Below are positions 1,282-36,714 of a stretch of 53,965 bases of DNA, piece by piece (positions within the stretch are counted from its first letter, which is position 1; every line of letters begins with the position of its first letter). The position numbers were made by a program, and so were the translations under genes. Under the pieces are notes generated by a model. It ran no database searches, was not told the origin of the DNA, and worked only from the letters and a program-made list of their open reading frames with translations. Source of the DNA: Prorocentrum cordatum (Eukaryota); assembly GCA_963575745.1 (NCBI GenBank), contig CAUYUJ010000278.1, positions 62,001-115,965 on the forward strand, in the 5' to 3' direction.

Positions 1282-3603
1282 TTTTTCCCCCCCATTAGCG
1301 CGTCCCAGGGAGACGCGCGCTGGCTGCGATCCCCCCCACATCAAGGTCGTTGGGGGGGATCGCTGCCCAGGCCGCGCGCGCCGCGGTTAGTCGCACTCCC
1401 GCCCCAGACCACCCAGAGTGAAGCCTTTTAGGGTTTAGGGCTTCTCCCCCCAACCCCCCTATCACGGGGGGCTGTCGAAGTGGTGCGCGCAGGCGATCGC
1501 CGACGCGGCCGTGGCACTGCGCATCCGCTTGAGCATGCGCGCAGGGCGCGCGACGTAGGCGCATCGGCTCGTCGCCTCGTCGAACATGCGGGCACGCGCG
1601 CAGGGTGCATGGCGCTGGCGCGTCAGCTCGCCTCGTCGATGAGGCAGCTGTCGCGCCTTCGGCAGGGGGCATTGCCGTTGGGCTGCCGCTGGCGCAGCAG
1701 ATCCACAGGGGGCCGCATTTGCTTTCGGCGTTGGAAAGCAGCGCTGCGAGGGCGCTGGCGCGGCAATCCCATGGGCCCCCGTGGGCCTCGAGCGAGTAGC
1801 CGCGCCGTCCGGCTCCTCGCTGACGGCGACGCGCACGGCAGTTGTATTCGCCCGCGGCTTTGGGTTTTGCTTTGAGGTCGCCCCCGCTGAAGCGATTGCA
1901 ATCATCAACGCAGACGCTGTCGATGCGAGCTTCGGAAGGCGGGAGGAGGAGCGCGAGGGGGTGGGTCTGGCACCCCCTCGCTACGATGCGCGCGCATGGC
2001 TGCGGCAGCACGTCCATGGCAGACCCCCTGAAATGCCTTGGGGGAGCTCTCTGGGAGCGCTGGGGGAGCGCCTCGACCTTTCCCCAGGATGGAAGCACGT
2101 GGGAGCGTCTGGGAGCGCGACAGGACACGCAGAGTGCACCGCGAGCGCGAGCCGTGAATTGCCCGTTGGGCTTGACCGTTGGCGTCGCCCCCGCTGAAGC
2201 GATTGCATGGTCGACGCAGCCGCCTTCGGCGCGAATTTCGCATGGCTGGAAGGGGGAGCGCGAGGGGGTGGGTCTGGCACCCCCTCGCTACGATGCGCGT
2301 GCATGGCTGCTGCAGCACCTCCATGGCAGACCGCTTGGAATGCCTTGGGAGAGCTCTCTGGGAGCGCTGAGAGAGCGCCTCGAGGTTTCCCCAGGATGGA
2401 AGCACGTGGGAGCGTCTGGGAGCGTGACAGGACACGCAGAGTGCACCGCGAGTGCGGGCCTTGGGAAGTCCATTGGGCAGGACCGTTGGCGTCGCCCCCG
2501 CTGAAGCGATTGCATTGTCGACGCAGCCGCCTTCGGCGCGAATGTCGCATGGCTGGAGAGGGAGCGCGAGGAGGTGGGTCTGGCACCCCCTCGCTACGAT
2601 GCGCGCGCACGGCTGCGGCAGCACCTGCATTGCGGGGGAGCGCCGGGAAGCGCCGCCAGGGAGCGCTGCCGAGTGCTTGCGAATGCATGAAAACGCTTGG
2701 GAGCGCCATGGGACCGCTTGGACTGCTTAAACGCGCTTGGGATCGCTGGGGGGCGCTGGGGACCACCTGCGGGAGCTTGGGAGCGCATGGGAACGCCTGG
2801 GAGCGCTTGGGAGCGCGCTGGGAGCGTGCCGGGAGCGCCTGGGAGCGCGCCGGAGCGCATGGGAGTGCTTCGGAGCGCCCCAGAGCGCTCGGAGGCGCCA
2901 GGGAGCGCGCAGGGAGCGCCTGAGCAGGCTGGGAGCGCCTGGGAGCGTGCAGGGAGCGCTTGGGAGTACCTGGGAGCGCTTGGGAGCGCCAGGGAGCGCC
3001 TGGGAGCGTGCCGGGAGCGTGCCGGGAGCGCCTGAGAGCGCCTGGGAGCGTGCCGGGAGCGCCTGGGAGCGCTTGGGAGCGCTTGGGGGCATGCCGAAAG
3101 CACCGGAGAGCGCTTGGGAGCGCGGGGGAACGCTTGGGAGCGCTGGGAACAGCCTGGGAACACTTGGGAGCGCCTGGGAGCGCCTGGGAGCGCTTGGGGG
3201 CGCTTGGAAGCGCCTGGGATCGCCTGGGAGCGCCTGGGAGCGCTTGGGAGCGCCTGGGAGCGCTTGGGAGCGCCTGGGACGTGCGCCAAGCGAAAGGACG
3301 CCGCATATTGTATTTTCATATGGTTTGCGGCCCCATGGACGGCCGAAAGGGCGCCGCATGCTGTATTTTCATAGGTTTGGAGCCCCAGGGGATGGAGCCG
3401 ACCGTGGGGGAGCCGCAGGCTAGGGCTGAGAGTTAAGGGTTCCTTTCATTGGTCGAACCAGCGGAGCCGTACACGCGCGGCGTGCGCATTCCTCCTCAGC
3501 GCTGCGCGCTTCGTCGGTGCCACGTACGTGGAAATGGGCAGGCTCGCTGAGCGCTCGGCCAGGCGCCACGGGCTACGGACGTTGCACAGCCCGTGGCTTG
3601 CAG
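1282..3603 (+). mobile_element. Family-A non-autonomous element (three ~307-bp internal units)
   Basis: Head hairpin, internal TTTAGGG x2 (1427-1440), units starting ~1879, 2186 and 2493, GGGAGCGCYT minisatellite, right end TTGCAG|TTTAGGG. The first ~30 nt are atypical. Confidence 0.75.
2760..3280. repeat. 10-bp minisatellite (GGGAGCGCYT)n
   Basis: G-rich on + in every family-A copy. Reverse-complemented in family C (3878-4318, 12158-12600, 28138-28582). Confidence 0.93.
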
Positions 3604-3667
3604 TTTAGGGTTTAGGGTTTATGGGTTTAGGGTTTAGGGTTTAGGGTTTAGGGTTTAGGGTTTAGGG
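3604..3667 (+). repeat. (TTTAGGG)~9 telomeric tract
   Basis: Read directly. Confidence 0.97.
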
Positions 3668-4209
3668 CTTCTCGGGCGCGCAGCGGCCGACAGTCCAGGC
3701 AATGCTGCCCCCTCTTCGGCGAGCTTGATTGGGGGGGCGGTTAGCCGACCCGAGCAAGCTTGGCGAAGGGGGCAGGAGGTGCAACATCTTCCCACCCCCG
3801 GCCGCATGGCCGGCAACCTCCCAAACTAAAGCCTTTTAGGGTTTAGGGCCGCTGGCCCCTAAATTCCCAAATGCATTCCAAGCGCTCCCAAGCGCTCCCT
3901 GGCGCTCCCAGACGCTCCCAGGCGCTCCCAAGCGCTCTCAGGCGCTCCCAGGCGCTCCCCGGCGCTTCCAGGCGCTCCCGGCGCGTCCCGAAGCGCTCCC
4001 AAGCGCTCCCAGGCGCTCCCTGGCAATCCCAAGCGCTCCCAGGCGTTCCCAAGCGCTCCCAGGCGCTCCTGGGCGCTCCCAGGCGCTCCCAAGCGCTTCC
4101 GGCGCGTTCCCAGGCGCTCCCAAGCGCTCCCAGACGCTTCCAGGCGCTCCCTGGCGCTCCCCGGCGCTACCCGGCGCTCCCGGCACGCTTCCAAGCGCTC
4201 CGAAGCGCC

Positions 4210-4240
<31 letters not shown>

Positions 4241-4274
4241 CCAGACGCTCCCAGGCGCTTCCAAGCGTTCCAAG

Positions 4275-4307
<33 letters not shown>

Positions 4308-4542
4308 TCCCAGGCGTCACTCAGAAGAAAAGGTCTTTGGGTTTAGGGTGTTGTAATCGTTGAGGATCAGGGGATGGTTTATCGTTGAAGCGCGAATCCC
4401 CAAAAGAGGGGGAGGGCAGCAGCAAAAGCTGCCACAAACACTCGGGCTACATGCTCAAGCATCTCAGAGATGCCCTGTCTCTCGTAGACGGCGACGGTGA
4501 TGCGCGGTGGGGTGGGCAGAAGCACAACGAGGTGCTTGGGAA
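3668..4542 (+). mobile_element. Family-C non-autonomous element
   Basis: Same ends as 11950-12891 and 27930-28808. Internal TTTAGGG x2 (3835-3848), C-rich 10-mer array, right end AAGCAC-AACGAG-GTGCTT-GGGAA|TTTAGGG. Confidence 0.7.
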
Positions 4543-4577
4543 TTTAGGGTTTAGGGTTTAGGGTTTAGGGTTTAGGG

Positions 4578-6349
4578 CTTCTGCGCAGAACCATCCTGTC
4601 CCCCCCTCCTCAGGAGGTAGGGGGGGATGGATGGATGCGTTCTGTCCCACCCCATCCACCCAGAGTCATTGCTTTTAGGGTTTAGGGATCTACCCCCCAC
4701 GCTCCCCCCTATCAAGGGGGGAAGGAGTGCTGGCGTCAGCCTGAGTGAGTGATGTGCGTCCCAGAAACACGCGTGAAGCGTAACAAGCAGGTCGGGTCGG
4801 GTCGAGCGCACTCGAGGGTTCGCCCGACTTCAACGTGCTTTGCATAGCATTGTGGTGGTTTACATAGCGGAAATAGAGATCCCCATAGCAGGCTCGATGA
4901 AGGGGCGCGCCTGGGAGCACGCATGATCAGTTTATAATATTTCTTACATAGGATTCTGATGGTTTACGTAGCGGGACGTAAAGATCACCATAGCAGGCTC
5001 GATCCAGGGGCGCGCCTGGGAGGCCGCATGATCAATTCATAATATTTTTGGCATAGGATTGTGGAGGGGGCCGTGAAGATCCGCATAGCAGGCTCGATCC
5101 AGGGGCGCAGGAAAGACGCGTGATCAGTTTATATTATGTTTTGCATAGGATTGTTTGCATAGCGGGACGTAAAGATCCGCATAGCAGGCTCGATCCAGGG
5201 GCGCGCCTGGGAGCACGCATGATCATTTTATAATATTTTTTGCATAGTATTGTGGAGGGGGCCGTGAAGATCCGCATGGCAGGCTCGATCCAGGAGCGCG
5301 CGTGGAAACACGCGTGATCAATTTATATTATGGTTTGCATAGGATTGTTTGCATAGCGGGACGTAAAGATCTCCATAGCAGGATCGATCCAGGGGCGCGC
5401 CTAGGAGCACGCGTGATCAGTTTATACTATTTTTTGCATAGGATTGCGGAGGGGGCCGTGAAGATCCGCATAGCAGGCTCGATCCAGGTGCGCGCGTGGA
5501 AACATGCGTGATCAGTTTAGTTTATGTTTGGCATAGGTTTGACATAGCAAACGTAAAGATCACCATAGCAGGCTCGATCCAGGGGCGCGGGGGCCGTGAA
5601 GATCTGCATAGCAGGCTCGATCCAGAAACGCGCTCGGGGAGAGCGTGGGGAGAGCTCCGGGGAAGAGCTGCCGGGGAGAGCTCTGGGGGAGAGCTCTGGG
5701 GGAGAGCTCTGGGCGAGAGCTCTGGGGGAAAGCTCTGGGGGGAGCTCTGGGGGAGAGCTCTGGGGAAGCTCTGGGGGAGGAGCTCCGGGTGGGAGCTCTG
5801 GGGGTACAGAGCTCTGGGAGAGAAGCTCTGGGAGAGAGCTCTGGGGGAGAGCTCTGGGGGAGAGCTCTGGGGGAGAGCTCTGGGGGAAAGCTCTGGGGGA
5901 GAGCTCTGGGGGAGAGCTTTGGGGGAGAGCTCTGGGGGAAAGCTCTGGGGGAGAGCTCTGGGGGGGAGCTCTGGGGGAGAGCTCTGGGGGAGAGCTCTGG
6001 GGGAGAGCTCTGGGGGGAAGCTCTGGGGGAGAGCTCTGGGGGAGAGCTCCGGGGGAGAGCTCCGGGGGAGAGCTCTGCGGGAGAGCTCTGGGGGAGAGCT
6101 CTGGGGGAGAGCTCTGGGGGAGAGCTCTGGGGGAGAGCTCTGGGGGACAGCTCTGGGGGAGAGCTCTGGGCGAGAAGCCGAGCGGTATCTCCGAGCATCC
6201 GGCCGAGGGTTAGGGGTTATCATTGTGCAAGCGAAGCACCGCCTCGGGCCGGCAAGGCTATGGGCCGCGGTGAGCTCGACTTGCAGCTCGCTCTCACTAG
6301 CAGATCCTTACAGGCGTGGCGGTGCGCGCCCCCAGGTCCGCGCCTGCAG
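4578..6349 (+). mobile_element. Family-B non-autonomous element
   Basis: Head CTTCTGCGCAGAACC, internal TTTAGGG x2 (4674-4687), ~96-bp repeats with core CATAGCAGGCTCGATCCAGG, 13-mer array, right end CAGGCGTGG..CCGCGCCTG-CAG|TTTAGGG. Confidence 0.75.
5636..6170. repeat. 13-bp minisatellite (GGGGGAGAGCTCT)n
   Basis: Read directly. Also at ~7450-8005, 33685-34228 and 35620-36050, always in family-B elements. Confidence 0.95.
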
Positions 6350-6377
6350 TTTAGGGTTTAGGGTTTAGGGTTTAGGG

Positions 6378-8186
6378 CTTCTGCGCAGAACCATCCTATC
6401 CCCCCTTCCTCAGGAGGTGGGGGGGGATGGATGGATGCGTTCTGTCCCACCCCATCCACCCAGAGTCATTGCTTTTAGGGTTTAGGGATCTACCCCCCAC
6501 GCTCCCCCCTATCAAGGGGGGAAGGAGTGCTGGCGTCAGCCTGAGTGAGTGATGTGCATCCCAGAAACACGCGTGAACCGTAACAAGCAGGTCGGGTCGG
6601 GTCGAGCGCACTCGAGGGTTCGCCCGACTTCAACGTGCTTTGCATAGCATTGCGGTGGTTTACATAGCGGAAATAAAGATCCCCATAGCAGGCTCGATGA
6701 AAGGGGCGCGCCTGGGAGCACGCATGATCAGTTTATAATATTTCTTGCGTAGGATTGTGATGGTTTACGTAGCGGGACGTAAAGATCACAATAGCAGGCT
6801 CGATCCAGCGGCGCGCCTGGGAGGCCGCATGATCAATTCATAATATTTTTGGCATGGGATTGTGGAGGGGGCCGCGAAGATCCGCGTAGCAGGCTCGATC
6901 CAGGGGCGCAGGAAACACGCGTGATCAGTTTCCATCATGTTTTGCATAGGATTGTTTGCATAGCGGGACGTAAAGACCCCCATGGCAGGTTCGATCCAGG
7001 GGCGCGCCTGGGAGCACGCATGACTATTTTATAATATTTTTTGCATAGGATTGCGGAGGGGGCCGCGGAGATCCGCATAGCAGGCTCGACCCAGGAGCGC
7101 GCGTGGAAACACGCGCGGTCGGTTTATATTATGTTTTGCAGAGGATTGCTTGCATAGCGGGACGTAAAGATCCCCATAGCAGGCTCGATCCAGGGGCGCG
7201 CCTAGGAGCACGCGCGATCAGTTTATAGTATTTTTTGCATGGGATTGCGGAGGGGGCCGTGAAGATCCGCATAGCAGGCTCGATCCAGGGGCGCGTGTGG
7301 AAACACGCGTGATCAGTTTAGTTTATGTTTTGCATAGGTTTGACATAGCAAACGTAAAGATCACCATAGCAGGCTCGATCCAGGGGTGCGGGGGCCGTGA
7401 AGATCCGCATAGCAGGCTCGATCCAGAAACGCGCTTGGGGGGAGCGCTGCGGGAGAGCTCTGGGGGAGAGCACCGGGTGAGAGCTCCGGGGGAGAGCTCT
7501 GGGGGAGAGCTCTGGGGGGGACTCTGGGGAGAGCTAGTGGGGAGAGCTTCTGGGAGATAGGCTCTGGGGGGGAGCTCTGTGGGGGTGTGCTCTGGTGAGA
7601 GCTCTGGGGGAGAGCTCTGGGGTAGAAGCTCTGGGAGAGAGCTCTGGGAGGAGCTCTGGGGGAGAGCTCTGGGAGAGCTCTCCTGGGGAGAGCTCTGGAG
7701 AAAGCTCTGGGAGAGCTCTGGGGTAGAGCCTGGGTAGAGCTTTGGGGGAAAGCTCTGGGGGAGAGCTCTGGGGAGAAGCTCTGGGATAAGCTCTGGGGGA
7801 GAGCTCTGGGGGAGAGCTCTGGGGAGAGCTCTGGGGGAGAGCTCTGGGGGAGAGCTCCGGGGGAGAGCTCTGGGGGAGAGCTCTGGGGGAGAGCTCTGGG
7901 GGAGAGCTCTGGGGGAAAGCTCTGGGGGAGAGCTCTGGGGGGGAGCTCTGGGGGAGAGCTCTGGGGGGGAGCTCTGGGGGAGAGCTCCGGGGGAGAGCTC
8001 CGGGGAAGGCCGAGCGGTATCCGCGAGCATCCGGCCCCGGGTTAGGGGTTATCATTGTGCAAGCGAAGCACCGCCTCGGGCCGGATGGGGGGCCCTTATG
8101 GTCGCGGTGAGCTCGCTTGCAGCAGCTCGCTCTCACTAGCGAATCTACAGGCGTGGCGGTGGCGCGCCCCCAGTCCGCGCCTGCAG
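6378..8186 (+). mobile_element. Family-B non-autonomous element
   Basis: Colinear diverged copy of 4578-6349. Internal TTTAGGG x2 at 6474-6487. Confidence 0.75.
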
Positions 8187-8215
8187 TTTAGGGCGTCTCG
8201 GTTTAAAATTTAGGG

Positions 8216-9455
8216 CCTGCATTAGAGAAAGCGCACGCTGGCTGCGATCCCCCCCGCATCAAGGTTGTTTGGGGGGATCGCTGCCCAGGCCGCGCGCGCC
8301 ACGGTTAGTCGCACTCCCGCCCCAGACCACCCAGAGTGAAGCCTTTTAGGGTTTTGGGTTTCTCCCCCCAACCCCCCTATCACGGGGGGCTGTCGAAGTG
8401 GCGCGCGCAGGCGATCGCCGACGCGGCCGTGGCATTGCGCATCCACTTGAGCATGCGCGCAGGGCGCGTGTCGTAGGCGCGTCGGCTCGTCGCCCCGTCG
8501 AAGAGGCAGCCTTTGGCGATTTCGGCGTTGAGCTTCGCCGTTGGGCTGCCGCTGGCGCAGCATGTCCATGCGTTGCCGCCTTTGCCTTCGGCGCTGGGTT
8601 GTGACACTGGGCTGTGAATGCAAGGATGCGCGCGTGCGGCCGCGGCGGTAGCAATGCGCGCCGATGCGAGCACGCGCGCAGGGTGCATGGCGCTGGCGCG
8701 TCAGGTCGCCTCGTCGATGAAGCAGCCGTTTGCACCGTCGGCGTGGAGCTTCGCCGGTGGGCTGCCGCTGGCGCAGCAGTTCCACAGGGGTGCGGCATTT
8801 GCCTTCGGCATTGGAAAGCAGCACTGCGAAGGCGCTGGCGCGGCAATCCCATGGCCCCCAGTGGGCCTCGAGCGAGTGGTTGCGCCGTCGGGCTCCTCGC
8901 TGACGGCGACGCGCACGGCAGTTACATTCGCCCGCGGCTTTGGGTTTCGCTTTTGGTGTCGCCCCCCCGCTGAAGCGATTGCAATCGTCGACGCAGCCGC
9001 CTTCGGCGCGAGCTTCGGACGGCTGGAAGGGGGGCGCGAGGGGGTGGGTCTGGCACCCCCATCGCTACGATGCGCGCGCATGGCTGCGGCAGCACCTCCA
9101 TGGCAGAGCCCGTGGAATGCCTTGGGGGGGCCCTCTGGCAGCGCCTGGAGCTGCCCCCGGGAGCCCTGGGACCGCCTGGAACTGCCTGGGCACGCTTGGG
9201 GGCGCGCGGGAGCGCATGGCAGCGCTGCGTGGCGCCTTGGAGCGCTTGCGCGTGCTTAAGAGTGCGTGGGAATGCATGGGCGCCTGGGAGCACCTGGGAG
9301 CGCCTGGGAGCGCTTAGGAGCGCTAAAAAGTTGCGGCAGCGCTGGGAACGCTGGGGAGCGCCTGCGAGCGCCTGGGAGCGCGCCAAGAGCGTGCCGGGAG
9401 CGCTTGGGAGCGCCGGCGAGCGCTTGGGAGCGCCTGGGTGCGTGCCGGGAGCGCT

Positions 9456-9486
<31 letters not shown>

Positions 9487-9996
9487 CCAGCGCGTTCCCA
9501 ATGCCGAGAGCGCCTGGGGGCGTGCCGGGAGCGCCTGAAGCGCCATGGAGCGCTTGGGAGCGTGCCGGGAGCGCTTGGGAAAGCTTGGAAGCGCCTGGGA
9601 GCGTCTGGGAGCGCCTGGGAGCGCCTGGGAACGCCTGGGAGCGCCTGGGAGCGTGCCGGGAGCGCTTGGGGGGTCCCTGGGAGCGCCTGGAACGTCTGGG
9701 AGCGCCTGGAGCGCCGCATGCTGTAATTTCATAGGTTTAACGCACCCAGAGAGCACCGCATGCTGTATTTTCATAAGTTTGGAGCCCCAGGGGATGTAGG
9801 CGGCGCGCAGGGAACCCGCTGGGTTAAGGGTTCCTTTTCTTAAGAGAACACCACGGGGATGCACCGCGCGGCGTGCGAATTCCTCCTCAGCGGCTATCGC
9901 CGCTTCGTCGGTGCGGCGCACGCTGCATGGGCAGGCTCGCTGAGCGCTCGGCCAGGCGCCACGGGCTACTGACGTTGCACCGCCCGTGGCTTGCAG
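8216..9996 (+). mobile_element. Family-A non-autonomous element
   Basis: TTTAGGG|CCTGCATTAGAG start, internal dimer 8345-8358 (second unit TTTTGGG), TTGCAG|TTTAGGG end. Confidence 0.78.
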
Positions 9997-10045: not shown

Positions 10046-11519
10046 CCTGCATTAGAGAAAGCGCGCGCTGGCTGCGATCCCCCCCACATCGAGGTTGTTG
10101 GGGGGGATCGCTGCCCAGGCCGCGCGCGCCACGGTTAGTCGCACTCCCGCCCCAGACCACCCAGAGTGAAGCCTTTTAGGGTTTAGGGTTTCCCCCCCCA
10201 ACCCCCCTATCACGGGGGGCTGTCGAAGTGGTGCGCGCAGGCGATCGCCGACGCGGCCGCGGCACTGCGCATCCACTTGAGCATGCGCGCAGGGCGCGTG
10301 ACGTAGGCGCGTCGGCTCGTCGCCTCGTCGAAGAGGCAGCCTTTTGCGATTTCGGCGTTGAGCTTCGCCGTTGGGCTGCCGCTGGCGCAGCATGTCCATG
10401 CGTTGCTGCATGTGCCTTCGGCACTGGGTTGCGACACTGGGCCGTGAATGTTGGGATGCGCGCGTGCGGCCGCGGCCTCAGCAATGCGCGCCGATGCGAG
10501 CACGCGCGCAGGGTGCATGGCGCTGGCGCGTCAGGTCGCCTCGTCGATGAGGCAGCCGTTTGCACCTTCGGCGTGGAGCGTCGCCGGTGGGCTGCCGCTG
10601 GCGCAGCAGTTCCACAGGGGTCCGGCATCTGCCTTCGGCATTGGAAAGCAGCACTGCGAAGGCGCTGGCGCGGCAATCCCATGGTTTCCCGTGGGCCTGG
10701 AGCGAGTGGTTGCGCCGTCGGGCTCCTCGCTGACGGCGACGCGTACGGCAGTTACATTCGCCCGCGGCTTTGGGTTTCGATTTTTGGGTTCGCCCTCCCG
10801 CTGAAGCGATTGCAATCATCGACGCAGCCGCCTTCGGCGCGAGCTTCGGACGGCTGGAGGGGGAGCGCGAGGGGGTGGGTCTGGCACCCCCTCGCTACGA
10901 TGCGCGCGCATGGCTGCGGCAGCACCACCATGGCAGAGCCCGTGGAATTCCTTGGGGGGGCCCTCTGGCAGCGCTGGGAGAGCGCCTGGAGCTTCCCCCT
11001 GGGGCCGCCTGGGACCGCCTGGGCACGCTTGGGAGCGCGCGGGAGCGCATGGGAGCGCCGCGTGGCGCCTTGGAGCGCTTGTGGGTGCTTAAGAGCGCGT
11101 GGGAATGCTTGCGCGCCTGGGAGCACCTGGGAGCGCCAGGGAGCGCTTAGGAGCGCTTCGGAGTCGTGGCAGCGCTGGGAACGCTGGGGAGCGCCTGGGA
11201 GCGCGCCAGGAGCGTGCCGGGAGCGCTTGGGAGCGCCTGCGAGCGCCGGGAGCGCTTGGGGGCGTGCCAGGAGCGCTTGGGAGCGCCTGGGAGCGCCTGG
11301 GAGCACGCGCCTGGGAACGCGCTTGGGAGCGTGCCGGGAGCGCCCAGGAGCGCTTGGGAGCGCTTGGGAGCGCGTGGGAGCCCCTGGAACCGTGCCGAGA
11401 GCGCCTGGGAGCGTGCCGGGAGCGCCTGAAGCGCCGTGGAGCGCTTGGGAGCGTGCCCCGAGCGCGTGGGAAAGCTCGGAAGCGCCTGGGAGCTCTTGGG
11501 AGCGCCTGGGAGCGCTTGG

Positions 11520-11551
<32 letters not shown>

Positions 11552-11949: not shown

Positions 11950-12307
11950 CTTCTCTTAGCGCAGCGGCCGACAGTCCAGGCAATGCTGCCCCCCCTTCGG
12001 CAAGCTTGATTGGGGGGGCGGTTGGCCGACCCGAGCAAGCTTGGCGAAGGGGGCAGGAGGTGCAACATCTTCCCACCCCCGGCCGCATGGCCGGCAACCT
12101 CTCAAACTAAAGCCTTTTAGGGTTTAGGGCCGTTGGCCCCTAAATTCCCAAATGCATTCCAAGCGCTCCCAGGCGCTCCCTGGCGCTCCCAGGCGCTCCC
12201 TGGCGCTCGCAAGCGCTCTCAAGCGCTCCCAGGCGCTCCCCGGCGCTCCCACGCGCTCCCGGCGCGTTCCGAAGCGCTCCCAAGCGCTCCCGGGAGCTCC
12301 CTGGCGA

Positions 12308-12339
<32 letters not shown>

Positions 12340-19550: not shown

Positions 19551-19559
19551 CGCCGCAGC

Positions 19560-20258: not shown

Positions 20259-20590
20259 ATATGCATGGGCGGTGCAGTTCTCAACGGCAGGGGCGGGCAT
20301 GCAGGGTTACCTCCGTTGTTCGAATGTCTGTCAGCGAATGCAGGAGAGCGCGGATGCAATTTGCGAGCTTTGGGTGCGAGATGCATTGGCGATGCGTCCC
20401 AGCATGTCGCGGTGGAGGCATGTGGTGCCTTGGAATCTGCCTATTCTCACCGCAACATCAGTCGCGATGTCGTTGGTTCCGTTGCCGCTTTGGCTCAAGC
20501 CTGATTTCGCCACCGCTTGGCACGCGCACCTGGCAGCCATCGTTGGCAGGCATCAGCCTTCGCATCCACCTTCAGCGCACTCTCGCGGCG

Positions 20591-25950: not shown

Positions 25951-27929
25951 ACTTGGCTGGACGCGGACGCCGCCGCAGCTGGTTAGACTCACGCCGTAGT
26001 TCGCGCCATTGCGTGCGAGCATTTTCCGCTGGGTAGCACCTCGTGAAACCCCGAGGCACTAGTATGTCAGGCTCCAGCAGCGACGCCACGAGCTTGCCGC
26101 CAGCGAGAAAAACATATTTGCCGTCCGACGCACTCAGAATCAGCGCTTGAGGACATCGCAGTGCACACGGCCCAGAGAAATTCCTTGGGGGGAGGGGGAG
26201 CGCGAGGGGGCGGGGCGGGCGCCCCCTCGCACAGCGGCAGCATTAGCGTTCGGAGCGACGTCGGCCCTGCAGGGCCTGCCAAACTATCCCCAGGATCCTT
26301 GGAACGGTTCGCAGCGTGAGGCCGCGGCTTATTTGGGGCGTTTTTTTTTGGCATGTCCCGGGCCAGCGTAATTCCTGAAGGGCATTGGCGGTGGGTGGTG
26401 CTGAAGATGGCTTTGGGCGCATCGCAGACGACGCAGGCTTGCCATGTTGCGGCTTTGAATCGCTTGGAAGGCCTCTGAGGGCAGCAGAGCTTGTAGTTTG
26501 AGGTCGCCCCCGCTGAAGCGATTGCAATCATCCGCAGACGCTGTCGACGCGAGCTTCGGAAGGCGGGAGGAGGAGCGCGAGGAGGTGGGTCTGGCACCCC
26601 CCTCGCTACGATGCGCGCGCATGGCTGCGGCAGCACGCCCATGGCAAACCCCTTGGAATGCCTTGGGGGAGCTCTCTGGGAGCGCTGGGGGAGCGCCTCG
26701 ACCTTGCCCCAGGATGGAAGCACGTGGGAGCGTCTGGGAGCGTGACAGGACACGCAGAGTGCACCGCGAGCGCGAGCCGTGAATTGTCCGTTGGGTTCGA
26801 CCGTTGGCGTCGCCCCCGCTGAAGCGATTGCAGTGTCGACGCAGCCGCCTTCGGCGCGAATTTCGCATGGCTGGAGGGGGAGCGCGAGGAGGTGGGTCTG
26901 GCACCCCCTCGCTACGATGCGCGCGCATGGCTGCGGCAGCACCTGCATGGCGGGGGAGCGCCGGGAAGCGCCGCCAGGGAGCGCTGCCGAGTGCTTGCGA
27001 ATGCATGCAAGCGCTTGGGAGCGCCAGGGAACGCTTGGGAGCACCTGTGGGAGCTTGGGAGCGCTTGGGAGCAGTGGGAGCGTGCTGGGGGCGTGCTGGG
27101 AGCGTGCCGGGAGCGCCTGGGAGCGTGCCGGAGCGCCTCGGAGTGCTTGGGAGCGCCCCGGAGCGCTCGGAGGCGCCAGGGAGCGCTTGGGAGCGCGCAG
27201 GGAGCGCCTGAGCATGCTCGAGCGCCTGGGAGCGTGCCGGGAGCGCTTGAGAGTACCTGGGAGCGCTTGGTTGCGCTTGGGAGCGCTTGGGAGCGCCTGG
27301 GAGCATGCTGGGAGCGCCAGGATGCGCCTGGGAGCGTGCCGGGAGCGCCTGGGAGCGCCTGGGAGCGCCCAGGAGCGCCTGGGAGCGCCCAGGAGCGCCC
27401 AGGAGCGCCTGGGAGCGCTTGGGAGCGCCCGGGAGCGCTTGGGAACGCCTGGGAACGACCTGGGAACGCCTGGGAGCGCCTGGGAGCGTCTGGGAACGCT
27501 TGGGAGCGCCTGGGGGCGCCTGGGAGCGCCTGGGAGCGCTTGGGAGCGCCTGGGGAGCGCCTGGGACGTGCGCCAGCCGAAAGGACGCCACATGCTGTAT
27601 TTTCATATGGTTTGCGGCCCCATGGACGGCCGAAAGGGCGCTGCATGCTGTATTTTCATAGGTTTGGAGCCCCAGGGGATGGCACCAACCGTAGCGAACC
27701 CTACGGCTGAGCTTTGGGTTAAGGGTTCTTTCTCTTCTCAGATGCACACCCACGGGGATGCATACCCGCGGGATGCGAATCCTCCTCAGCGGCCATCGCC
27801 GCTTCGTCGGTGCGGCGTGCGCGCATGGGCGGACTCGCTGATCGCTCGGCCAGGCGCCACGGGCTTCTGACGATGCACCGCCCGTGGCTTGCAGTTTAGG
27901 GTTTAGGGTTTAGGGTTTAGGGTTTAGGG

Positions 27930-28399
27930 CTTCTCTTAGCGCAGCGGCCGACAGTCAAGGCAATGCTGCCCCCCCTTCGGCAAGCTTGATTGGGGGGGCG
28001 GTTAGCCGACCCGAGCAAGCTTGGCGAAGGGGGCAGGAGGTGCAACATCTTCCCACCCCCGGCCGCATGGCCGGCAACCTCCCAAACTAAAGCCTTTTAG
28101 GGTTTAGGGCCGTTGGCCCCTAAATTCCCAAATGCGTTCCAAGCGCTCCCTGGCGCTCCCAGGCGCTCCCAAGCGCTCCCAGGCGCCCTCAGTCAAGCGC
28201 TCCCATGCGCTCCCCGGCGCTGCCAGGCGCTCCCGGCGCGTTCCGAAGCGCTCCCTGGCAATCCCAAGGCGCTTCCAGGCGCTCCCAGGCTCCCCAGGCG
28301 TTCCCGGCGCGTTCCCAAGCGCTCCCGGGCGCTCCCAGACGCATCCAAGCGCTCCCAAGCGTTCCCAGGCGCTCCCGGCACGTTCCCAGGCGCTCCCGG

Positions 28400-28445
<46 letters not shown>

Positions 28446-28499
28446 CCCGGCGCTCCCAGGCGCTCCCAGGCGTTCCCAGGCGCTCCCAGGCGCTGCCAG

Positions 28500-28563
<64 letters not shown>

Positions 28564-28808
28564 CCCCAGGCGCCCCCGGGCGCTTCGAGGAAAAGGTCTT
28601 TGGGTTTAGGGTGTTATATTCGTTGAGGATCAGGGGAGGTTTATCATTGAAGCGCGAATCCCCAAAAGAGGGGGAGGGCAGCAGCAAAAGCTGCCAAGGT
28701 GAACCACTCGGGCTACATGCTCAAGCATCTCAGAGATGCCCTGTCTCTCGTAGACGGCGACGGTGATGCGCGGTGGGGTGGGCAGAAGCACAACGAGGTG
28801 CTTGGGAT
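27930..28808 (+). mobile_element. Family-C non-autonomous element
   Basis: Same head and right end as 3668-4542. Internal dimer 28096-28109. Confidence 0.7.
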
Positions 28809-28997
28809 TTTAGGGTTTAGGGTTTAGGGTTTAGGGTTTAGGGTTTAGGGTTTAGGGTTTAGGGTTTAGGGTTTAGGGTTTAGGGTTTAGGGTTTAGGGT
28901 TTAGGGTTTAGGGTTTTGGGTTTTGGGTTTTGGGTTTTGGTTTTAGGGTTTAGGGTTTAGGGTTTAGGGTTTAGGGCTTAGGGTTAAGGGTTTAGGG
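28809..28997 (+). repeat. Telomeric tract, ~27 units including TTTTGGG variants
   Basis: Read directly. Confidence 0.97.
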
Positions 28998-30534
28998 CCT
29001 GCAGGGGCGCATGCCCGCGCTGGCTGCGATCCCCCCCACATCAAGGTTGTTGGGGGGGGATCGCTGCCCAAGCCGCGCGCGCTATGAACTTGCACTCCCG
29101 CCCCAGACCACCCACAGTAAAGCCCTTTAGGGTTTAGGGTTTCTCCCCCCAGCCCCCTTATCACGGGGGGCTATCGAAGTGGCGCGCGCAGGCGATCGCC
29201 GACGCGGCCGCGGCGTTGCGCATCCACGTGAGCACGCGCGCAGGGCTGCCCCTGGCGCAGCATGTCCGTGCGTTGCCGTTTTGCCTTCGGCACTGGGTTG
29301 TGACACTGGGGTGCGAATGCTGGGAAGCGCGCGCGCGGTCGCGGCCGTGGCAATGCGCGCCCATGCGGGCACGCGCGCAGGGTGCATGGCGCTGGCGCGT
29401 CAGCTCGCCTCGTCGATGAGGCAGCTGTTGCGCCTTCGGCAGGGGGCTTCGCCGTTGGGCTGCCGCTGGCGCAGCAGATCCACAGGGGTCCGCAGTTGCC
29501 TTCGGCGTTGGAAAGCAGCGCTGCGAGGGCGCTGGCGCGGCAATCCCATGGGCCCCCGTGGGCCTCGAGCGAGTAGCCGCGCCGTCGGGCTCCTCGCTGA
29601 CGGCGACGCGCACGGCAGTTGCATTCGCCCGCGGCTTTGGGTTTTGCTTCGATGTCGCCCCCGCGGAAGCGATTGCAATCATCGACGCAGACGCTGTCGA
29701 CGCGAGCTTCGGAAGGCGGGAGGAGGAGCGCGAGGGGGTGGGTCTGGCACCCCCTCGCTACGATGCGCGCGCATGGCTGCGGCAGCACGTCCATGGCAGA
29801 CCCCTTGGAATGCCTTGGGGGAGCTCTCTGAGAGCGCTGGGGGAGCGCCTCGACCTGTCCCCAGGATGGAAGCACGTGGGAGCGTCTGGGAGCGCGACAG
29901 GACACGCAGAGTGCACCGCGAGCGCGAGCCGTGAATTGCCCGTTGGGCTTGACCGTTGGCGTCGTCCCCGCTGAAGCGATTGCACTGTCGACGCAGCCGC
30001 CTTCGGCGCGAATTTCGCATGGCTGGAGGGGGAGCGCGAGGGGGTGGGTCTGGTACCCCCTCGCTACGATGCGCGCGCATGGCTGCGGCAGCACCTGCGT
30101 GGCGGGGGAGCGCCGGGAAGCGCCGCCAGGGGGCGCTGCCGAGTGCTTGCGAATGCATGCAAACGCTTGGGAGCGCCATGGGACCGCTCGGACTGCTGAA
30201 AACTGCTTGGGAGCGCCAGGGAACGCTTGGGAGCACCTGTGGGAGCTTGGGAGCGCCTGGGAGCAGTGGGAGCGTGCTGGGAGCGTGCTGGGAGCGTGCC
30301 GGGAGCGCCTGGGAGCGTGCCGGAGCGCCTCGGAGTCCTTGGGAGCGCCCCGGAGCGCTCGGAGGCGCCAGGGAGCGCTTGGGAGCGCGCAGGGAGCGCC
30401 TGGGCATGCTCGAGCGCCTGGGAGCGTGCCGGGAGCGCTTGGGAGCGCCTGGGAGCATGCTGGGAGCGCCAGGATGCGCCTGGGAGCGTGCCGGGAGCGC
30501 CTGGGGGCGCCTGGGAGCGCCTAGGACCGCGTGG

Positions 30535-30569
<35 letters not shown>

Positions 30570-30685
30570 TGCCGAGAGCGCTTGGGAACATGCCGGGAGC
30601 GCCTGAAGCGCCGTGCCTGGGGGTGCCTGGGAGCGCCTGGGAGCGCCTGGGAACGCCTGGGAGCGCCTGGGAGCGCGCCGAGAGC
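28998..30685 (+). mobile_element. Family-A element truncated at the right end
   Basis: Normal head and dimer (29126-29139). Stops inside the 10-mer minisatellite and runs straight into (TTTAGGG)10. Confidence 0.72.
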
Positions 30686-30755: not shown

Positions 30756-33700
30756 TTTCTGCGCAGAACCATCCTATCCCCCCCTCCTCAGGAGGTAGGG
30801 GGGGATGGATGGATGCGTTCTGTCCCACCCCATCCACCAGAGTCATTGCTTTTAGGGTTTAGGGATCTACCTCCCACGCTCCCCCCTATCAAGGGGGGAA
30901 GGAGTGCTGGCGTCAGCCTGAGTGAGTGATGTGCGTCCCAGAAACAGATATGTCAGCATTAGCGCGATTCGAGAGTCGTCCTTCGCGAAAGTTTCGCGCG
31001 CGACCGCGACCCTTGCGGGTGCAGAGTCGCCCGCGTAGCCTTCCCCAGGGGCCGCCGCGTGGAGGCTGGACGTGGCCCCCTGGGTTTCCGCGCGGCAGTG
31101 GGCGCCGCGCCGCGCGCGGGGTCCGCCGGGCTTTCTCGCTCGCGGACTCGGCGCGGCGCGGCGGCTACTCCCGCGCGGAAGCCCCTCTCGACTGCGAGCT
31201 TCCGCGTTCCTGGTGCAAGTCCGCGGAAGAGGGCACAACTGCGCCTTGCCGAGAGTTCGCGGGGGCGCCGTTGTTCGTGGGGTCGGCGGACGTCGGCTCT
31301 GCGACGCGCGTGAGCGCTGCGGGAGCGAGAGTGCGCGTGCGGTGGCGAGAGAATCAGCACCAAAGAAGCTCGAAAAAGACGCGCTTGAGAGAGCCCGCGG
31401 CCAAAGCAGCACCGAAAAGAGCTCGAAACAGACCGCTTTAGAGAGCCCGCGGCCAAAGCAGCACCTAAGGCAGCTCGAAACAAACGCGCTTGAGAGAGCC
31501 CGCGGCCGAAGCAGCACCAAAAAGCTCGAAACAGACGCGCTTGAGAGAGCACGCGGCCGAAGCAGCACCCAGGGGAGCTCGAAACAGATGCGCTTGAGAG
31601 AGCACGCGGCCGAAGCAGCACCCAAGGGAGCTCGAAACAGACGCGCTTGTGAGCCCGCGGCCAAAGGAGCATCCAAGGGAGCTCGAAACAGACGCGCTTG
31701 AGGGAGCCCGCGGCCGAAGCAGCACCCAGAGAGAGCTCGAAACAGACGCGCTTGTGAGAGCCCGCGGCCGAAACAGCACCCAAAGGGAGCTCGAAACAAC
31801 ACCCTTGAGAGAGTCTGCGGCCAAAGGAGCACCAAGGGAGCTCGAAACAGACGCGCTTGAGAGAGCCCCCGGCCGCAGCAGCACCCAAGGGAGCTCGAAA
31901 CAGACGCGCTTGAGAGAGCACGCGGCCGAAGCAGCACCCAGGGGAGCTCGAAAGAGACGCGCTTGTGAGAGCCCGCGGCGGAAACAGCACTCAAGGGAGC
32001 TCGAAACACACACCCTTGAGAGAGCCCGCGGCCGAAGCAGCACCCAGAGGGAGCTCGAAACAGACGCGCTTGTGAGAGCCCGCGGCCGAAACAGCACCCA
32101 AAGAAGCTCGAAACAACACCCTTGAGAGAGTCTGCGGCCAAAGGAGCACCAAGGGAGCTCGAAACAGACACGCTTGAGAGAGCCCGCGGCCGAAACAGTA
32201 TCCAAGGGAGCTCGAAACAGACACCCTTGAGAGAGTCCGCGGGCAAAGGAGCACCCAAGGGAGCTCGAAACAAGCGCGCTTGAGAGAGCCCGCGGCCGAG
32301 GCAGCACCCAATGGAGCTCGAAACAGACACCCTTGAGAGAGTCTGCGGCCAAAGGAGCACCCAAGGGAGCTCGAAACAGACACGCTTGAGAGCGCCCGCG
32401 GCCGAAACAGCACCCACGGGAGCTCGAAACAGACACCCTTGAGAGAGTCCGCGGCCAAAGCAGCACCCAAGGCAGCTCGAAAGAGACGCGCTTGAGAGAG
32501 CCCGCGGCCGAAGCAGCACCAAAAAGCTCGAAACAGACGCGCTTGAGAGCACGCGGCCGAAGCAGCACCCAAGGGAGCTCGAAACAGACAACCTTGAGAG
32601 AGTCCGCGGCCACAAGAGCATCCAAGGGAGCTCGAAACATACGCGCTTGAGAAAGCCCGCGGCCGAAGCAGCATCCAGGGGAGCTCGAAACAGACACGCT
32701 TGAGAGAGCCCGCGGCCGAAACAGCACCCAAGGGAGCTCGAAACAGACACCCCTGAGAGAGTCTGCGGCCAAAGGAGCACCCAAGGGAGCTCGAAACAGA
32801 CGCGCTTGAGAAAGCTCCCGGCCGCAGCAGCACCCAAGCGAGCTCGAAACAGACGCGCTTGAGAGAGCCCGCGGCCGAAGCAGCACCAGGGCAGCTCGAA
32901 ACAGACGCGCTGGTAAGAGCCCGCGGCCGAAACAGCACTCAAGGGAGCTCGAAACAGACACCCTTGAGAGAGTCCGCGGCCAAAGGAGCAGCCAAGTGAG
33001 CTCGAGACAGACGCGCTTGAGAGAGCCCGCGGCCGAAGCAGCACCCAAGGGAGCTCGAAACATACGGCTTGAGAGAGCCCGCGGCCGAAGCAGCACCCAG
33101 GGGAGCTCGAAACAGACCCGCTTGAGAGAGCCCGCGGCCGAAACAGCACCCAAGGGAGCTCGAAACAGACACCCTTGAGAGAGCCCGCGGCCAAAGGAGC
33201 ACCCAAGAGAGCTCTAAACAGACGCACTTGAGAGAGCCCGCGGCCGAAGCAGCACCCAAGGGAGCTCGAAACAGACGGCTTCAGAGAGCCCGCGGCCGAA
33301 GCAGCACCCAAGGGAGCTCGAAACAGACACGCTTGAGAGAGCCCGCGGCCGAAACAGCATTCAAGGGAGCTCGAAACAGACACCCTTGAGAGAGTCTGCG
33401 GCCAAAGGAGCACCCAAGGGACACAAACCAAGCCCACAGAAGAACGCAGACCGGCGCCACAGTCGCCCACCGAGCCAGCCCGAGCTCGGAGTTTCGCCCA
33501 AGTTCGGAGCCCGAGCCGGAATCAGAGCCCGAGCCGGCACCGCGCCGGAGCCCGGGGGAAAGTGAATCCGGTATATCGGTAATTTTCCTTGGTTTAGCTC
33601 TCCCAGAGAGGTCTGCGCACGCTCTTGAGGATATGTTTTGTTCACTACCCTGGGAACGATCCTCTGGGGGCTCCTTCACGCCAAGAGCTCTGGAGGGGAG

Positions 33701-34402: not shown

Positions 34403-34555
34403 TTAGGGTTTAGGGTTTAGGGTTTAGGGTTTAGGGTTTAGGGTTTAGGGTTTAGGGTTTAGGGTTTAGGGTTTAGGGTTTAGGGTTTAGGGTTTAGGGT
34501 TTAGGGTTTATGTTTTAGGTTTTAGGGTTTAGGGTTTAGGGTTTAGGGTTTAGGG
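34403..34555 (+). repeat. Telomeric tract, ~22 units
   Basis: Read directly. Confidence 0.97.
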
Positions 34556-36714
34556 TTTCCGAGCAGAACCATCCTATCCCCCCCTCACCAGGGTGTAGGG
34601 GGGGATGGATGGGTGCGTTGAGTCCCGCCCCATCCGCCCAGAGTCATTGCTTTTAGGGTTTAGGGTGGTCTACCCCCCTCGCTCCCCCCTAGCAAGGGGG
34701 GAAGTGTGCAGGCGTCGGCAAGAGTGAGTGGCCGCGTACCAGGGATGAATGAGAAGAGTTGTCCTTCGCGAAAGTTACGCGTGCGACCTAGGCCCGCGCG
34801 GGCGGGGGAATGTGAATCCGGTATATCGGTAATTTTCCTTGGTTTAGCTCTCCCAGAGAGGTCTGCGCACGCTCTTGAGGATATGTTTTGTTCACTACCC
34901 TGGGTGGGAATCGTCTGTGGGAGTCCGGCGGACGTCGGGAGATGGCGACGCGCGGGAGTACTGCGGCATGTGTATGCGATGGGCGAATCAGCGTGGGATT
35001 TGTCGCGGGGTTGAACATCCCACGCAGCAGCGGGGGTAAGCAAGTTGCGTTGCAGACGCAGCAGTGGGTCTGTGAGAACATTAAGCAGGCTGGCCAGGCA
35101 GCACCTTGGGGCACACGGCTTGAGAGACCCCAAAGGAGCACCCAAGAGAGCTCGAAACAGACGCGCTTGAGAGAGCCCGCAGCCGAAGCAGCACCCAAGG
35201 GAGCTCGAAACAGACGGCTTGAGAGAGCCCGCGGCCGAAGCAGCACCCAAGGGAGCTCGAAACAGACACGCTTGAGAGAGCCCGCGGCCGAAACAGCAAT
35301 CAAGGGAGCTCGAAACAGACACCCTTGAGAGAGTCTGCGGCCAAAGGAGCACCCAAGGGACACAAACCAAGCCCACAGGAGAACGCAGACCGGCGCCACA
35401 GTCGCCCACCGAGCCCCGAGCTCGGAGTTTCGCCCAAGTTCGGAGCCCGAGCCGGAATCAGAGCCCGATCCGGCACCGCGCCGGAGCCCGGGGGAATGTG
35501 AATCCGGTATATCGGTAATTTTCCTTGGTTTAGCTCTCCCAGAGAGGTCTGCGCACGCTCTTGAGGAGATGTTTTGTTCACTACCCTGGGAACGATCCTC
35601 TGGGGGCTCCTTCACGCCAAGAGCTCTGGTGGGGAGCTCTGGGGGAGAGCTCTGGGGGAGAGCTCTGGAGAGAGAGCTCTGGGGGAGAGCTCCGGGGGAG
35701 AGCTCTGGGGGAGAGCTCTGGGGGAGAGCTCTGGGGGAGAGCTCTGGGGGAGAGCTCTGGGGGAGAGCTCTGGGGGAGAGCTCTGGGGGAGAGCTCTGGG
35801 AGAAAGCTCTGGGGGAGAGCTCTGGGGGAGAGCTCTGGGAGAGAGCTCTGGGGGAGAGCTCATGGGGAGAGCTCTGGGTGAGAGCTCTGGGGGGGAGCTC
35901 CGGGGGAGAGCTCTGGGGGAGAGCTCTGGGGGAGAGCTCTGGGGGAGAGCTCTGGGAGGGAGCTCTGGGGGAGAGCTCTGGGGGAGAGCTCTGGGGGAGA
36001 GCTCTGGGGGAGAGCTCTGGGGGAGAGCTCTGGGGGAGAGCTCTGGGGGGAAGATCCCTCGTTGTGGGAGCCCACAAGGAGCCTGGGGGAGCTCGTTATG
36101 GGAGCCCACAAGGAGCCAAGGAGCCCGGGGGAGCTCGTTGTGGGTACCCCCCAGAATCCTCCGCGATGCCGGCATCAGGGAGGATTTTGGCCGGCGGACG
36201 CACAGAACCGTTGGACCATTGGATTTACGCCTTCGGCAATAAAACCTGCCCCAGCGCGCTCTTCCAGAGAAACCAAGCGTTGTGGGGTCAGTTTTAAGCA
36301 AATCCGGAGGTTTTTAAGCGCCGATACAAGTGCTTGGATGTCAGAGAGGCTACATGCGGGCGCGACAAGGGGGACCAGCGCGGCGGCGGGCAAACCCCAG
36401 CGCTAATTTTACGATTTCGGCTATCTAAGCGCCGCAGCGCGCTTCCGTAGCGAAGCCAAGCGTCCTGGGGCAGTTTCTAAGGAAATCCAATGGTTTTTAA
36501 GGGAAAGCCTAAACCCGCGGCCCAATACCCTAACCTCACCAGGGCCGGCCGCGATTTGGGAGCATCCGGCCCCGGGTTAGGGGTTATGTGTTTCTGAGCG
36601 AGACACAGCCTCAGGCCGGCAGGCCGATTGTGGCGGTGAGCTCGACTGGCAGCTCGCTCTCACTAGCAGATCCTTACAGGCGTGGCGATGCGCGCCCCAG
36701 GGCCGCGCCTGCAG
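34556..36714 (+). mobile_element. Divergent family-B element
   Basis: Variant head, dimer 34652-34665, ~5 copies of the 52-bp unit, 13-mer array, right end CCTGCAG|TTTAGGG. Confidence 0.7.

Follow-up and report, generated by a model that had tools for sequence, protein, structure and literature searches.

Why should every mobile element in a telomeric array carry, inside its own left end, a stretch of telomere repeat that is always two units long? The question is raised by 53,965 nucleotides of the dinoflagellate Prorocentrum cordatum (assembly GCA_963575745.1, contig CAUYUJ010000278.1, positions 62,001 to 115,965 of the forward strand; the whole of this stretch is called the window below), of which bases 1-36825 form an array of 12 Helitron-like elements, arranged head to tail and all in one orientation (12/12). 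The explanation that we favour, at somewhat less than even confidence, is that the two-unit tract is a copy of the target site, held within the left terminal sequence (LTS) and recognised by the transposition machinery. How Helitrons pick their targets is little understood, and few of them target strictly by sequence; whether an element's own sequence sets the choice matters for transposon biology and for tools that insert single-stranded DNA at a directed site.

All 12 left ends have one build: a hairpin head, followed by two C-rich motifs, followed by a 14-nt telomere tract of two units. Numbered along the array, the elements are as follows.

1282-1440, + strand: left end of element 1, a family A variant (head 1282-1426, tract 1427-1440); element end 3603.
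3668-3863, + strand: left end of element 2, family C (head 3668-3834, tract 3835-3848); element end 4542.
4578-4687, + strand: left end of element 3, family B (head 4578-4673, tract 4674-4687); element end 6349.
6378-6487, + strand: left end of element 4, family B (tract 6474-6487); element end 8186.
8216-8358, + strand: left end of element 5, family A (imperfect tract 8345-8358, TTTAGGGTTTTGGG); element end 9996.
10046-10219, + strand: left end of element 6, the family A reference copy (head 10046-10174, tract 10175-10188); element end 11928.
11950-12144, + strand: left end of element 7, family C (tract 12116-12129, inverted CCCTAAA 12138-12144); element end 12891.
12927-27894, + strand: element 8, family A2 (head 12927-13053, tract 13054-13067), with an A-type tail and a CTTGCAG end at 27894.
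27930-28124, + strand: left end of element 9, family C (tract 28096-28109, inverted CCCTAAA 28118-28124); element end 28808.
28998-30685, + strand: element 10, family A2 (head 28998-29125, tract 29126-29139), 3'-truncated and without a tail.
30756-30864, + strand: left end of element 11, family B (tract 30851-30864); element end 34402.
34556-34665, + strand: left end of element 12, family B'' (tract 34652-34665); element end 36714.

The tract reads exactly TTTAGGGTTTAGGG in 11 of the 12 left ends and carries one mismatch in the remaining one, at 8345; the heads before it measure 145, 167, 96, 96, 129, 129, 166, 127, 166, 128, 95 and 96 nt in elements 1-12. The pattern TCCCRCCCC N(1-25) CCNCCCAVAST NNWKSCY matched 10 of the 12 heads and nothing else in the 53,965 nt on either strand, with 0 matches expected, and the two heads that it missed depart from it by one substitution (the 12116 copy) and one deletion (the 30851 copy). 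Spacers between elements range from about two degenerate units (8187-8215) up to 27 units (28809-28997). A preliminary description of the same DNA had reported the 12 dimers at these positions behind heads of 95-170 bp (measured here as 95-167 nt), with spacers of about 2 to 27 units, a shared TCCCRCCCC and pre-dimer motif and strict pairing of head and body types, and all of this is borne out. Its statement that each element holds exactly two internal repeats stands for the tract (12/12) and is incomplete for the element as a whole, since a second telomere-like motif precedes 11 of the 12 complete tails and family C adds an inverted CCCTAAA.

Comparison of the heads revealed family groups with 93-97% pairwise identity in A (tracts 1427, 8345 and 10175), 94% in A2 (13054 and 29126), 97-98% in B (4674, 6474 and 30851) and 96-98% in C (3835, 12116 and 28096), the single B'' head (34652) being 85-88% identical to B. 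Both the first 150 nt past the tract and the tails fall into these same groups. The type of the head agreed with the body of its own element in 12/12 cases and with the tail of the preceding element in only 4/11; therefore the head belongs to the element that follows it. The converse arrangement, with the head as the 3' part of the preceding element and a variable internal tract, was rejected on this pairing. All 12 junctions between a telomere tract and an element enter a head. Used as profiles against the 53,965 nt, the heads of A, B and C recovered the 12 known heads and no solo head, their other hits being self-complementary ones at the same places and weak cross hits between A and B; heads standing alone or beside random bodies, by which the preliminary description would have been overturned, do not occur in the window. 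The copies in the window represent about five lineages (A, A2, B, B'' and C), not 12 independent observations.

Metagenome contigs were scanned with the head motif pattern, of which the tract is no part. Among 66 loci, 9 were true relatives with telomere repeats, carrying 10 left ends, and the other 57 were chance matches. All 10 of these left ends have a two-unit tract of 13-14 nt directly past the motif (TTTAGGGTTTAGGG, TTCAGGGTTTAGGG, TTTAGGGTTTAGGT, GTTAGGGTTTAGTG or TTCAGGGTTTAGGA), and their upstream spacers vary in length. The same pattern run as a control on prokaryote genomes gave 28 chance matches, none of which (0/28) was followed by a tract. Counting the window and the nine contigs together, every left end (22 of 22) thus has a tract of two units, with 12 mismatches in 308 positions. 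We also aligned contigs of four public sequencing runs (Logan) to 28998-30200. The family was very abundant in them (word depth 270-13,600 over 29121-29161); near the tract only the adjoining base 29125 varied, and among the indel rows listed none at a share of at least 5% lay inside 29126-29139. The census covers one window, 9 short contigs and the collapsed contigs of four runs.

Analysis of conservation among 10 lineage representatives gave 1.82 bits per position for the tract, 1.35 for the pre-tract motif and 0.60 for the next 12 nt. The nonamer AGGGTTTAG (AGGG^TTTAG), which is centred on the target cut site, is invariant in 10/10 representatives and intact in 19 of the 22 copies. Unit 1 is fixed as TTCAGGG in two lineages (D and G), so that conservation applies to the core and not to full telomere identity; the ends of unit 2 are altered in lineages E, F and G. 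Since the tract is the best-conserved segment and its nonamer is invariant, the comparison argues that the two-unit tract is under selection. Two units make the smallest tract that contains one whole junction, and this explains "exactly two" better than a counting mechanism does. The proposal of the preliminary description that the fixed dimer is functional is thereby supported, given two units in 22/22, the highest conservation across 10 lineages and no listed length variant in the four runs.

The tract lies between two hairpins, for which the left end of element 6 serves as reference.

10061-10129 (approximate limits), + strand: hairpin 1 in the head of element 6, its stem long but imperfect and its tip C7/G7.
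10145-10174, + strand: C-rich core, conserved and unstructured, TCCCGCCCC..CCACCCAGAGTGAAGCCT, adjoining the tract on its 5' side.
10202-10219, + strand: hairpin 2 of element 6 (C6-TATCAC-G6).

Hairpin 1 is present in every head as a long, imperfect stem with a C-run paired to a G-run at the tip. Across 16 aligned heads, 97.3% of the cells of its inner stem were paired, a value that 0 of 500 shuffles reached and that compares with 49-72% in slid controls; four pairs are altered on both sides (covariation), and lineages C, E and F build the same structure from unrelated sequence. The core consists of TCCCRCCCC and then CC.CCCA.A(G/C)T....CCT, with a small covarying hairpin between the two motifs in C-like lineages. 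From core to tract, 8 of the 10 lineages folded no better than shuffles (z -0.77 to +1.53), and a core-to-tract pairing proposed by RNAalifold was rejected, because it folds no better than shuffles and its pairs never vary.

There are two forms of hairpin 2. One, that of A, A2, A3, B and D, is a C6-loop-G6 hairpin a few bases past the tract, which stays unpaired; its sequence in families A and B is CCCCCC-TATCA(C/A)-GGGGGG, and its deletion from the long copy, which had been noticed before, is located at 13068. The other form occurs in C, E, F and G, where unit 2 of the tract is itself one arm and an inverted CCCTAAA (at 3857-3863 in element 2) the other, which places the GGG^TTT junction at the foot of the hairpin; the distal stem covaries in C-like lineages (CC/GG versus TGCC/GGCA). 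To judge from these alignments, the hairpins that flank the tract are under selection. One metagenome relative (L061, 1303-1906) repeats the tract and hairpin 2 (CCTTTCAGGGTTT.GGACCTAAAC) about 410 nt downstream without a head; this headless tract opens a second copy of the first segment of the body, and the boundary of the duplication is the 5' edge of the tract.

A transposase gene is carried only by the 15-kb element 8 (12927-27894). The remaining 11 of 12 elements are non-autonomous and satellite-rich, and the short copies share head and tail types with this long one.

21764-25947, + strand: RepHel gene, broken, with HUH (HLH), YVSKYVAKF and a Pif1-like helicase.

The RepHel frame contains the HUH motif RPHLHVLFF, the two-tyrosine motif YVSKYVAKF and a helicase; comparison with a 1387-aa relative revealed that the reading frame shifts near 23071-23092 and is interrupted by a stop codon at 25132-25134. 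When the protein is aligned with 10 relatives, residues H189, H191, Y299, Y303 and K306 do not vary; the named relatives belong to two dinoflagellate genera, Prorocentrum and Durusdinium. A profile of 11 relatives matched PIF1 (E 4e-18) and the helicase part of Helraiser (7lcc; 7e-8), and Pfam detected AAA_30 and AAA_19 in 11/11 relatives and PIF1 in 6/11. The Rep domain appears divergent: Helitron_like_N (PF14214) reached E 0.04, below threshold, in 2/11 relatives and had no match in the window copy. In a language-model search, 20 of the 30 named hits of Rep fell in a set labelled PF14214 Helitron_like_N (score 0.92), which is a lead only, the label being that of a family carried by 52% of the members of the listed cluster; an AlphaFold model of the domain (pLDDT 49) was too low in confidence for use. 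Upstream of Rep (20600-21700), the frame shows a Cys-rich motif (C..(N/R/T).(W/H/N)(K/P)......GKC.WC.P.RM-like) three times, and once a CxxC..CxxC; this N-terminal region, which matched no Pfam family and gave no usable atlas hit, could be a DNA-binding region.

At the right ends, a hairpin stands a few bases before the end in the form of CCACGGGC..GCCCGTGG followed by CTTGCAG in family A and of GGCGCG..CGCGCC followed by TGCAG in family B; the right end of family C is GGGAA. Overall, the 5' termini are CCTGC, CTTCT or TGTC and the 3' termini CAG or GAA, and the only terminal inverted repeat is a 5-nt CTGCA/TGCAG in family A, with nothing evident in families B and C. At 20 of 21 visible left junctions of the window and the contigs, TTTAGGG is the last unit of the 5' flank (TTCAGGG at the remaining one), and the 3' flank begins with TTTAGGG at 12 of 13 window ends (TTAGGG at one) and 11/11 contig ends. 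Both flanks are in telomere phase and no bases are duplicated, that is, there is no target-site duplication. As read from these junctions, insertion takes place at GGG^TTT of the telomeric G-strand, with the transposase-sense strand always in the G-strand; the right terminal sequence (RTS) faces the chromosome end (terminal tract 36715-36825). RepHel, the 3' hairpins and the exact junctions thus identify the elements, in our assessment of the sequence, as Helitron-like rolling-circle transposons. A telomere-primed Penelope-like element with a hammerhead in its head was considered and rejected, since the long copy encodes RepHel on the + strand and no Rfam family was found in the window at gathering thresholds.

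These junctions also bear on the ways in which the tract could act through base pairing. The preliminary description had offered a guide to telomeric DNA as one example, beside a telomere-protein site and a template for use if transcribed antisense. The element enters the G-strand, and the tract is of that strand's own sense; guide pairing with the G-strand is therefore excluded and only the C-strand could be paired; perfect complementarity is not conserved either, TTCAGGG being fixed in two lineages. An indirect guide would have the single-stranded circle anneal to the telomere C-strand, opening a displacement loop whose displaced G-strand is offered to the HUH nuclease at GGG^TTT. The G-strand sense of the tract, its unpaired state in A, A2, A3, B and D, its perfect match to the host repeat in 11 of 12 window tracts, the Pif1-like helicase of the element and the general need of HUH enzymes for single-stranded targets all agree with such a route, but we consider it very unlikely: TTCAGGG in D and G and the altered ends of unit 2 in E, F and G leave only the 9-nt core in common, unit 2 is sequestered in a hairpin in C-like lineages, and 14 nt is short for unaided strand invasion. 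Scarcely credible, to our mind, is an antisense left-end transcript in which CCCUAAACCCUAAA, with hairpins on either side, would imitate the template of telomerase RNA or serve as another telomere-directed RNA. It is suggested by geometry only, in that a two-unit C-strand template on the reverse complement would have a hairpin immediately on its 5' side; insertion in fixed phase inside a telomere tract requires no new repeat synthesis, and the Rfam result just given speaks against it as well.

The head-side tract has a counterpart near the right end, so that the overall layout of an element is head, tract, cargo, telomere-like motif, tail. The tail of element 5 is an example.

9831-9996, + strand: A-type tail, a right terminal module of 166 nt that starts past GGGTTAAGGG and ends in the CCACGGGC..GCCCGTGG hairpin and CTTGCAG.

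This second motif stands before 11 of the 12 complete tails at a family-fixed distance from the 3' end (131-197 nt overall): 166-169 nt in family A (GGGTTAGGGG or GGGTTAAGGG), 131-138 nt in family B (GGGTTAGGGG) and 194-197 nt in family C (GG(G)TTTAGGG), with examples at 1075-1096, 6203-6216 and 4339-4351. The metagenome contigs have the same telomere-like motif ahead of their tails. The tail-side motif has drifted (GGGTTAGGGG, GGGTTAAGGG, GAGAGTTAAGGG) and the head-side tract has not, which again argues that the tract is under selection now. Sequences just past the tract (CTTCTCC.., TTTCTCC..) and at the start of the tail (CCTTTTCTTAGGAG..) resemble the starts of heads (CTTCTCTTAGCG.., CTTCTGCGC..). 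This likeness suggests that the elements are composite, having arisen by read-through fusion of neighbouring units in the same orientation with capture of the spacers between them. The first head (1282-1306) begins with TTTTTCCCCCCCATTAG and not with CCTGCATTAG, and its first bases resemble the post-tract sequence of family A (TTTCCCCCCCC), which suggests recombination between two telomere-abutting starts.

A composite origin leads to the view that the tract is a functionless relic, a two-unit spacer captured once by read-through past a weak end and then inherited by all families. We regard this as quite unlikely, even though the array would be the right substrate, with co-oriented units and telomere repeats between them, the post-tract and tail starts look as if three once-separate telomere-abutting units had been joined, and a two-unit tract is little prone to slippage; capture by end bypass is, moreover, treated as an established idea for Helitrons in the available part of PMC13085455. 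What it leaves unexplained is the fall from 1.82 bits in the tract to 0.60 just downstream, seen among 10 lineages that otherwise have heads too dissimilar to align well, together with the drift of the tail-side motif in the same elements. A relic origin is also compatible with a present function, whereas this view demands that there be none.

The presence of telomere-like motifs at family-fixed distances from both ends (on the tail side in 11 of the 12 complete tails) speaks for a further alternative, in which both motifs are sites for a duplex telomere-binding protein, either a host Myb-type protein or the Cys-rich N-terminus of RepHel. Such a protein would anchor the element, or a circular intermediate of it, in telomeric chromatin or draw the two ends together, and two units would be its minimal duplex site, since the core that it recognises spans a unit junction; the Myb domain of rice RTBP1 is said to need two TTTAGGG repeats with a GGGTTT core. 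Also consistent with it are the invariant core AGGGTTTAG, which spans the unit junction, the C-like and G lineages, in which unit 2 is already duplex in a hairpin with the inverted CCCTAAA, and the three Cys-rich motif copies, of unassigned family, in the RepHel N-terminus. The tail motif of A, B and D, however, is TTAGGGG-like rather than the host TTTAGGG and varies within one family, and no telomere-binding domain was detected in RepHel by Pfam on the N-terminal frame or by the atlas search; we rate this alternative as unlikely, though far from negligible.

In the explanation that we favour, that of a target-site copy, the head, the tract and the second hairpin together constitute the LTS, a conserved and obligatory module, and the internal two-unit tract is a selected cis-element. 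When the DNA is single-stranded, it lies within an unstructured, conserved C-rich/G-rich core between the two hairpins, where RepHel may read it with the same surface that it uses for the target. HUH nucleases act on single-stranded DNA, and for this reason the tract would mark the left end of the element and couple that end to telomeric DNA. By what is established for HUH transposons, the observed orientation fits, the G-strand being exposed as a single strand both at the 3' overhang and while it serves as template for the lagging strand. The tract itself probably originated as a captured telomere spacer, through read-through fusion in a same-orientation array. The non-autonomous B and C families have little in common with the RepHel-bearing A2 beyond hairpin 1, the C-rich motifs and the tract, and these are what trans-mobilisation by one enzyme would be expected to conserve. 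A bolder form, which we hold to be doubtful though a real possibility, is that the transposase picks its landing site by matching a template copy in its own left end (AGGG^TTTAG between two hairpins), a copy re-writable in principle, the elements serving as G-strand chromosome-end builders. If the site is indeed matched to the internal copy, Helitron-like elements would possess a cis-encoded and, in principle, re-writable device for target selection.

Several points weigh against a target-site copy. That RepHel binds or cuts the tract is something that we infer only. Headless copies, which would be expected if the internal GGG^TTT were cut efficiently, were not seen in the small window, and the head-anchored metagenome search is blind to them. 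The telomere-like motif on the tail side is not predicted and would fit a duplex-binding protein or relic spacers better. Rep stays below the Pfam Helitron_like_N threshold, and its model, at pLDDT 49, is unusable. The independent lineages number only about 10, 3/10 of them from one genome, and they possibly exchange end modules. The columns of the pre-tract motif (1.35 bits) were fixed by the search pattern in the metagenome copies, which leaves the tract and the downstream segment as the only unbiased ones. In the Logan contigs separate copies are merged and rare variants lost, and the indels present are at least those listed, so that this evidence is supportive and not conclusive.

The distribution of telomere units describes the setting in which these left ends occur. 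The window is GC-rich and contains 130 TTTAGGG units, all on the + strand and grouped in 29 clusters, and only 3 CCCTAAA units, each within a family C left end; a TTTAGGG-dimer pattern gave 96 matches in the window versus 0 expected.

36715-36825, + strand: terminal telomere tract of 16 units, followed by a 100-N scaffold gap at 36826-36925; presumed chromosome end.

Since the terminal TTTAGGG cluster adjoins the gap, bases 1-36825 are read as a chromosome end with its G-strand running endwards. The join across the 100-N gap is a scaffolding decision and not sequence. Beyond it, 36926-53965 is unrelated DNA with tandem repeats of its own (units of about 120 nt at 37950-38700 and of about 20 nt at 38700-39000) and contains no telomere units and no heads.

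Much of the array consists of satellites. Family C bodies (3878-4316, 12159-12610 and 28139-28584) are mostly a minisatellite, (CCAGGCGCTC)n, which is the cyclically permuted reverse complement of the (GGGAGCGCCT)n found in family A bodies (323-968, 2733-3279 and 9135-9715); one minisatellite is thus carried in opposite orientations by the two families. The RepHel-bearing element 8 has 55 copies of a 109-nt satellite (13472-19558), and one B-type copy has 39 copies of a 53-nt satellite (31351-33421); this 53-nt unit also makes up a shorter array at 35133-35360. Element 10 (28998-30685) breaks off inside its own 10-nt minisatellite (..CGCGCCGAGAGC), and 10 telomere units follow directly; this tailless A2 copy may be a truncated insertion or a healed break.

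Comparison with known systems begins with the IS200/IS605 family, to which the preliminary description had likened the elements. Its IS608 TnpA is a small Y1 HUH enzyme without a helicase, in which 4-nt guides at the foot of a hairpin pair with the cut site. The likeness holds for an HUH enzyme that acts on single strands with hairpins near both ends and a single-stranded target, for a left cut site that lies in the flank and equals the target, and for strand-specific insertion, which fits a lagging-strand template. It does not extend to a guide that pairs with the cut site: the internal tract repeats the target sequence itself and does not complement it, families A, B and D have no complementary guide, and CCCTAAA occurs in 3/12 left ends, in family C only. 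Canonical Helitrons (HLE1, e.g. Helraiser) resemble the elements in having a Pif1-like helicase C-terminal to a Rep of the HUH-Y2 type, a subterminal hairpin on the 3' side, the lack of both target-site duplications and terminal inverted repeats, and non-autonomous partners. In contrast to HLE1, the elements have neither 5'-TC...CTRR-3' termini nor an A^T target, Rep falls under the Helitron_like_N threshold and the LTS has a large hairpin.

Short telomere repeats that are inherited with the element and linked to its association with chromosome ends are also found in TBE1 and in Penelope-like elements. There the repeats are terminal, in a cut-and-paste element and as 3' primers for reverse transcription, respectively, whereas here they are internal, of fixed length and of G-strand sense, in a rolling-circle DNA transposon. 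TBE1, from Oxytricha, is the telomere-repeat-carrying element cited in PMC13085455.

With Helitron2/Helentron (HLE2) elements, the array shares a target whose 3' side begins with T and non-autonomous copies rich in tandem repeats. The HLE2 hairpin at each end, as described in the part of PMC13085455 consulted, is matched by hairpin 1 and the RTS hairpins, and the available text of PMC8788227 reports a Helitron2-like RepHel from the dinoflagellate Symbiodinium. The elements differ from HLE2 in having a G^T target inside a 7-nt repeat instead of T^T or T^C. Asymmetric terminal inverted repeats are not evident in them (only CTGCA/TGCAG in family A), no AP-endonuclease domain was seen, and the account of HLE2 in those sections of PMC13085455 includes no target-site copy inside the element.

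The closest likeness is to the telomere-capping Helitrons of Paramecium aurelia (BMC Biol 2026, PMC13085455), which were reported without a mechanism. According to the passages of that paper on these elements, they too have RepHel, insert into telomeric repeats with an absolute orientation bias, are stacked at chromosome ends with internal telomere tracts of the same polarity and variable length, are crowded with satellites, and have derivatives without open reading frames and an RTS stem-loop shortly before the 3' end. The same passages place the Paramecium elements in the C-rich strand with the LTS endwards, in contrast to the G-rich strand and the RTS endwards here, and give the host repeat as C4A2/C3A3 versus TTTAGGG; they mention no internal tract, LTS hairpin or conserved core, and LTS or RTS terms are absent from the readable supplements. 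A report of TTTAGGG-targeting Helitrons or of a target copy embedded in the LTS was not found in the literature searched, most subscription journals being outside its reach. Telomere-specific Helitrons are thus already known from Paramecium (2026), and what is new here is the opposite strand, the tail-side motif and the pairing of unit 2 with an inverted CCCTAAA in some lineages. Compared with the ciliate case, the chromosome ends of this dinoflagellate are, to judge from this array, built from stacked rolling-circle elements on the opposite strand, which bears on subtelomere formation and the spread of satellites, and the family offers a sharply defined, testable cis-element: a 14-nt target-site copy with covarying hairpins, conserved across lineages from several sources.

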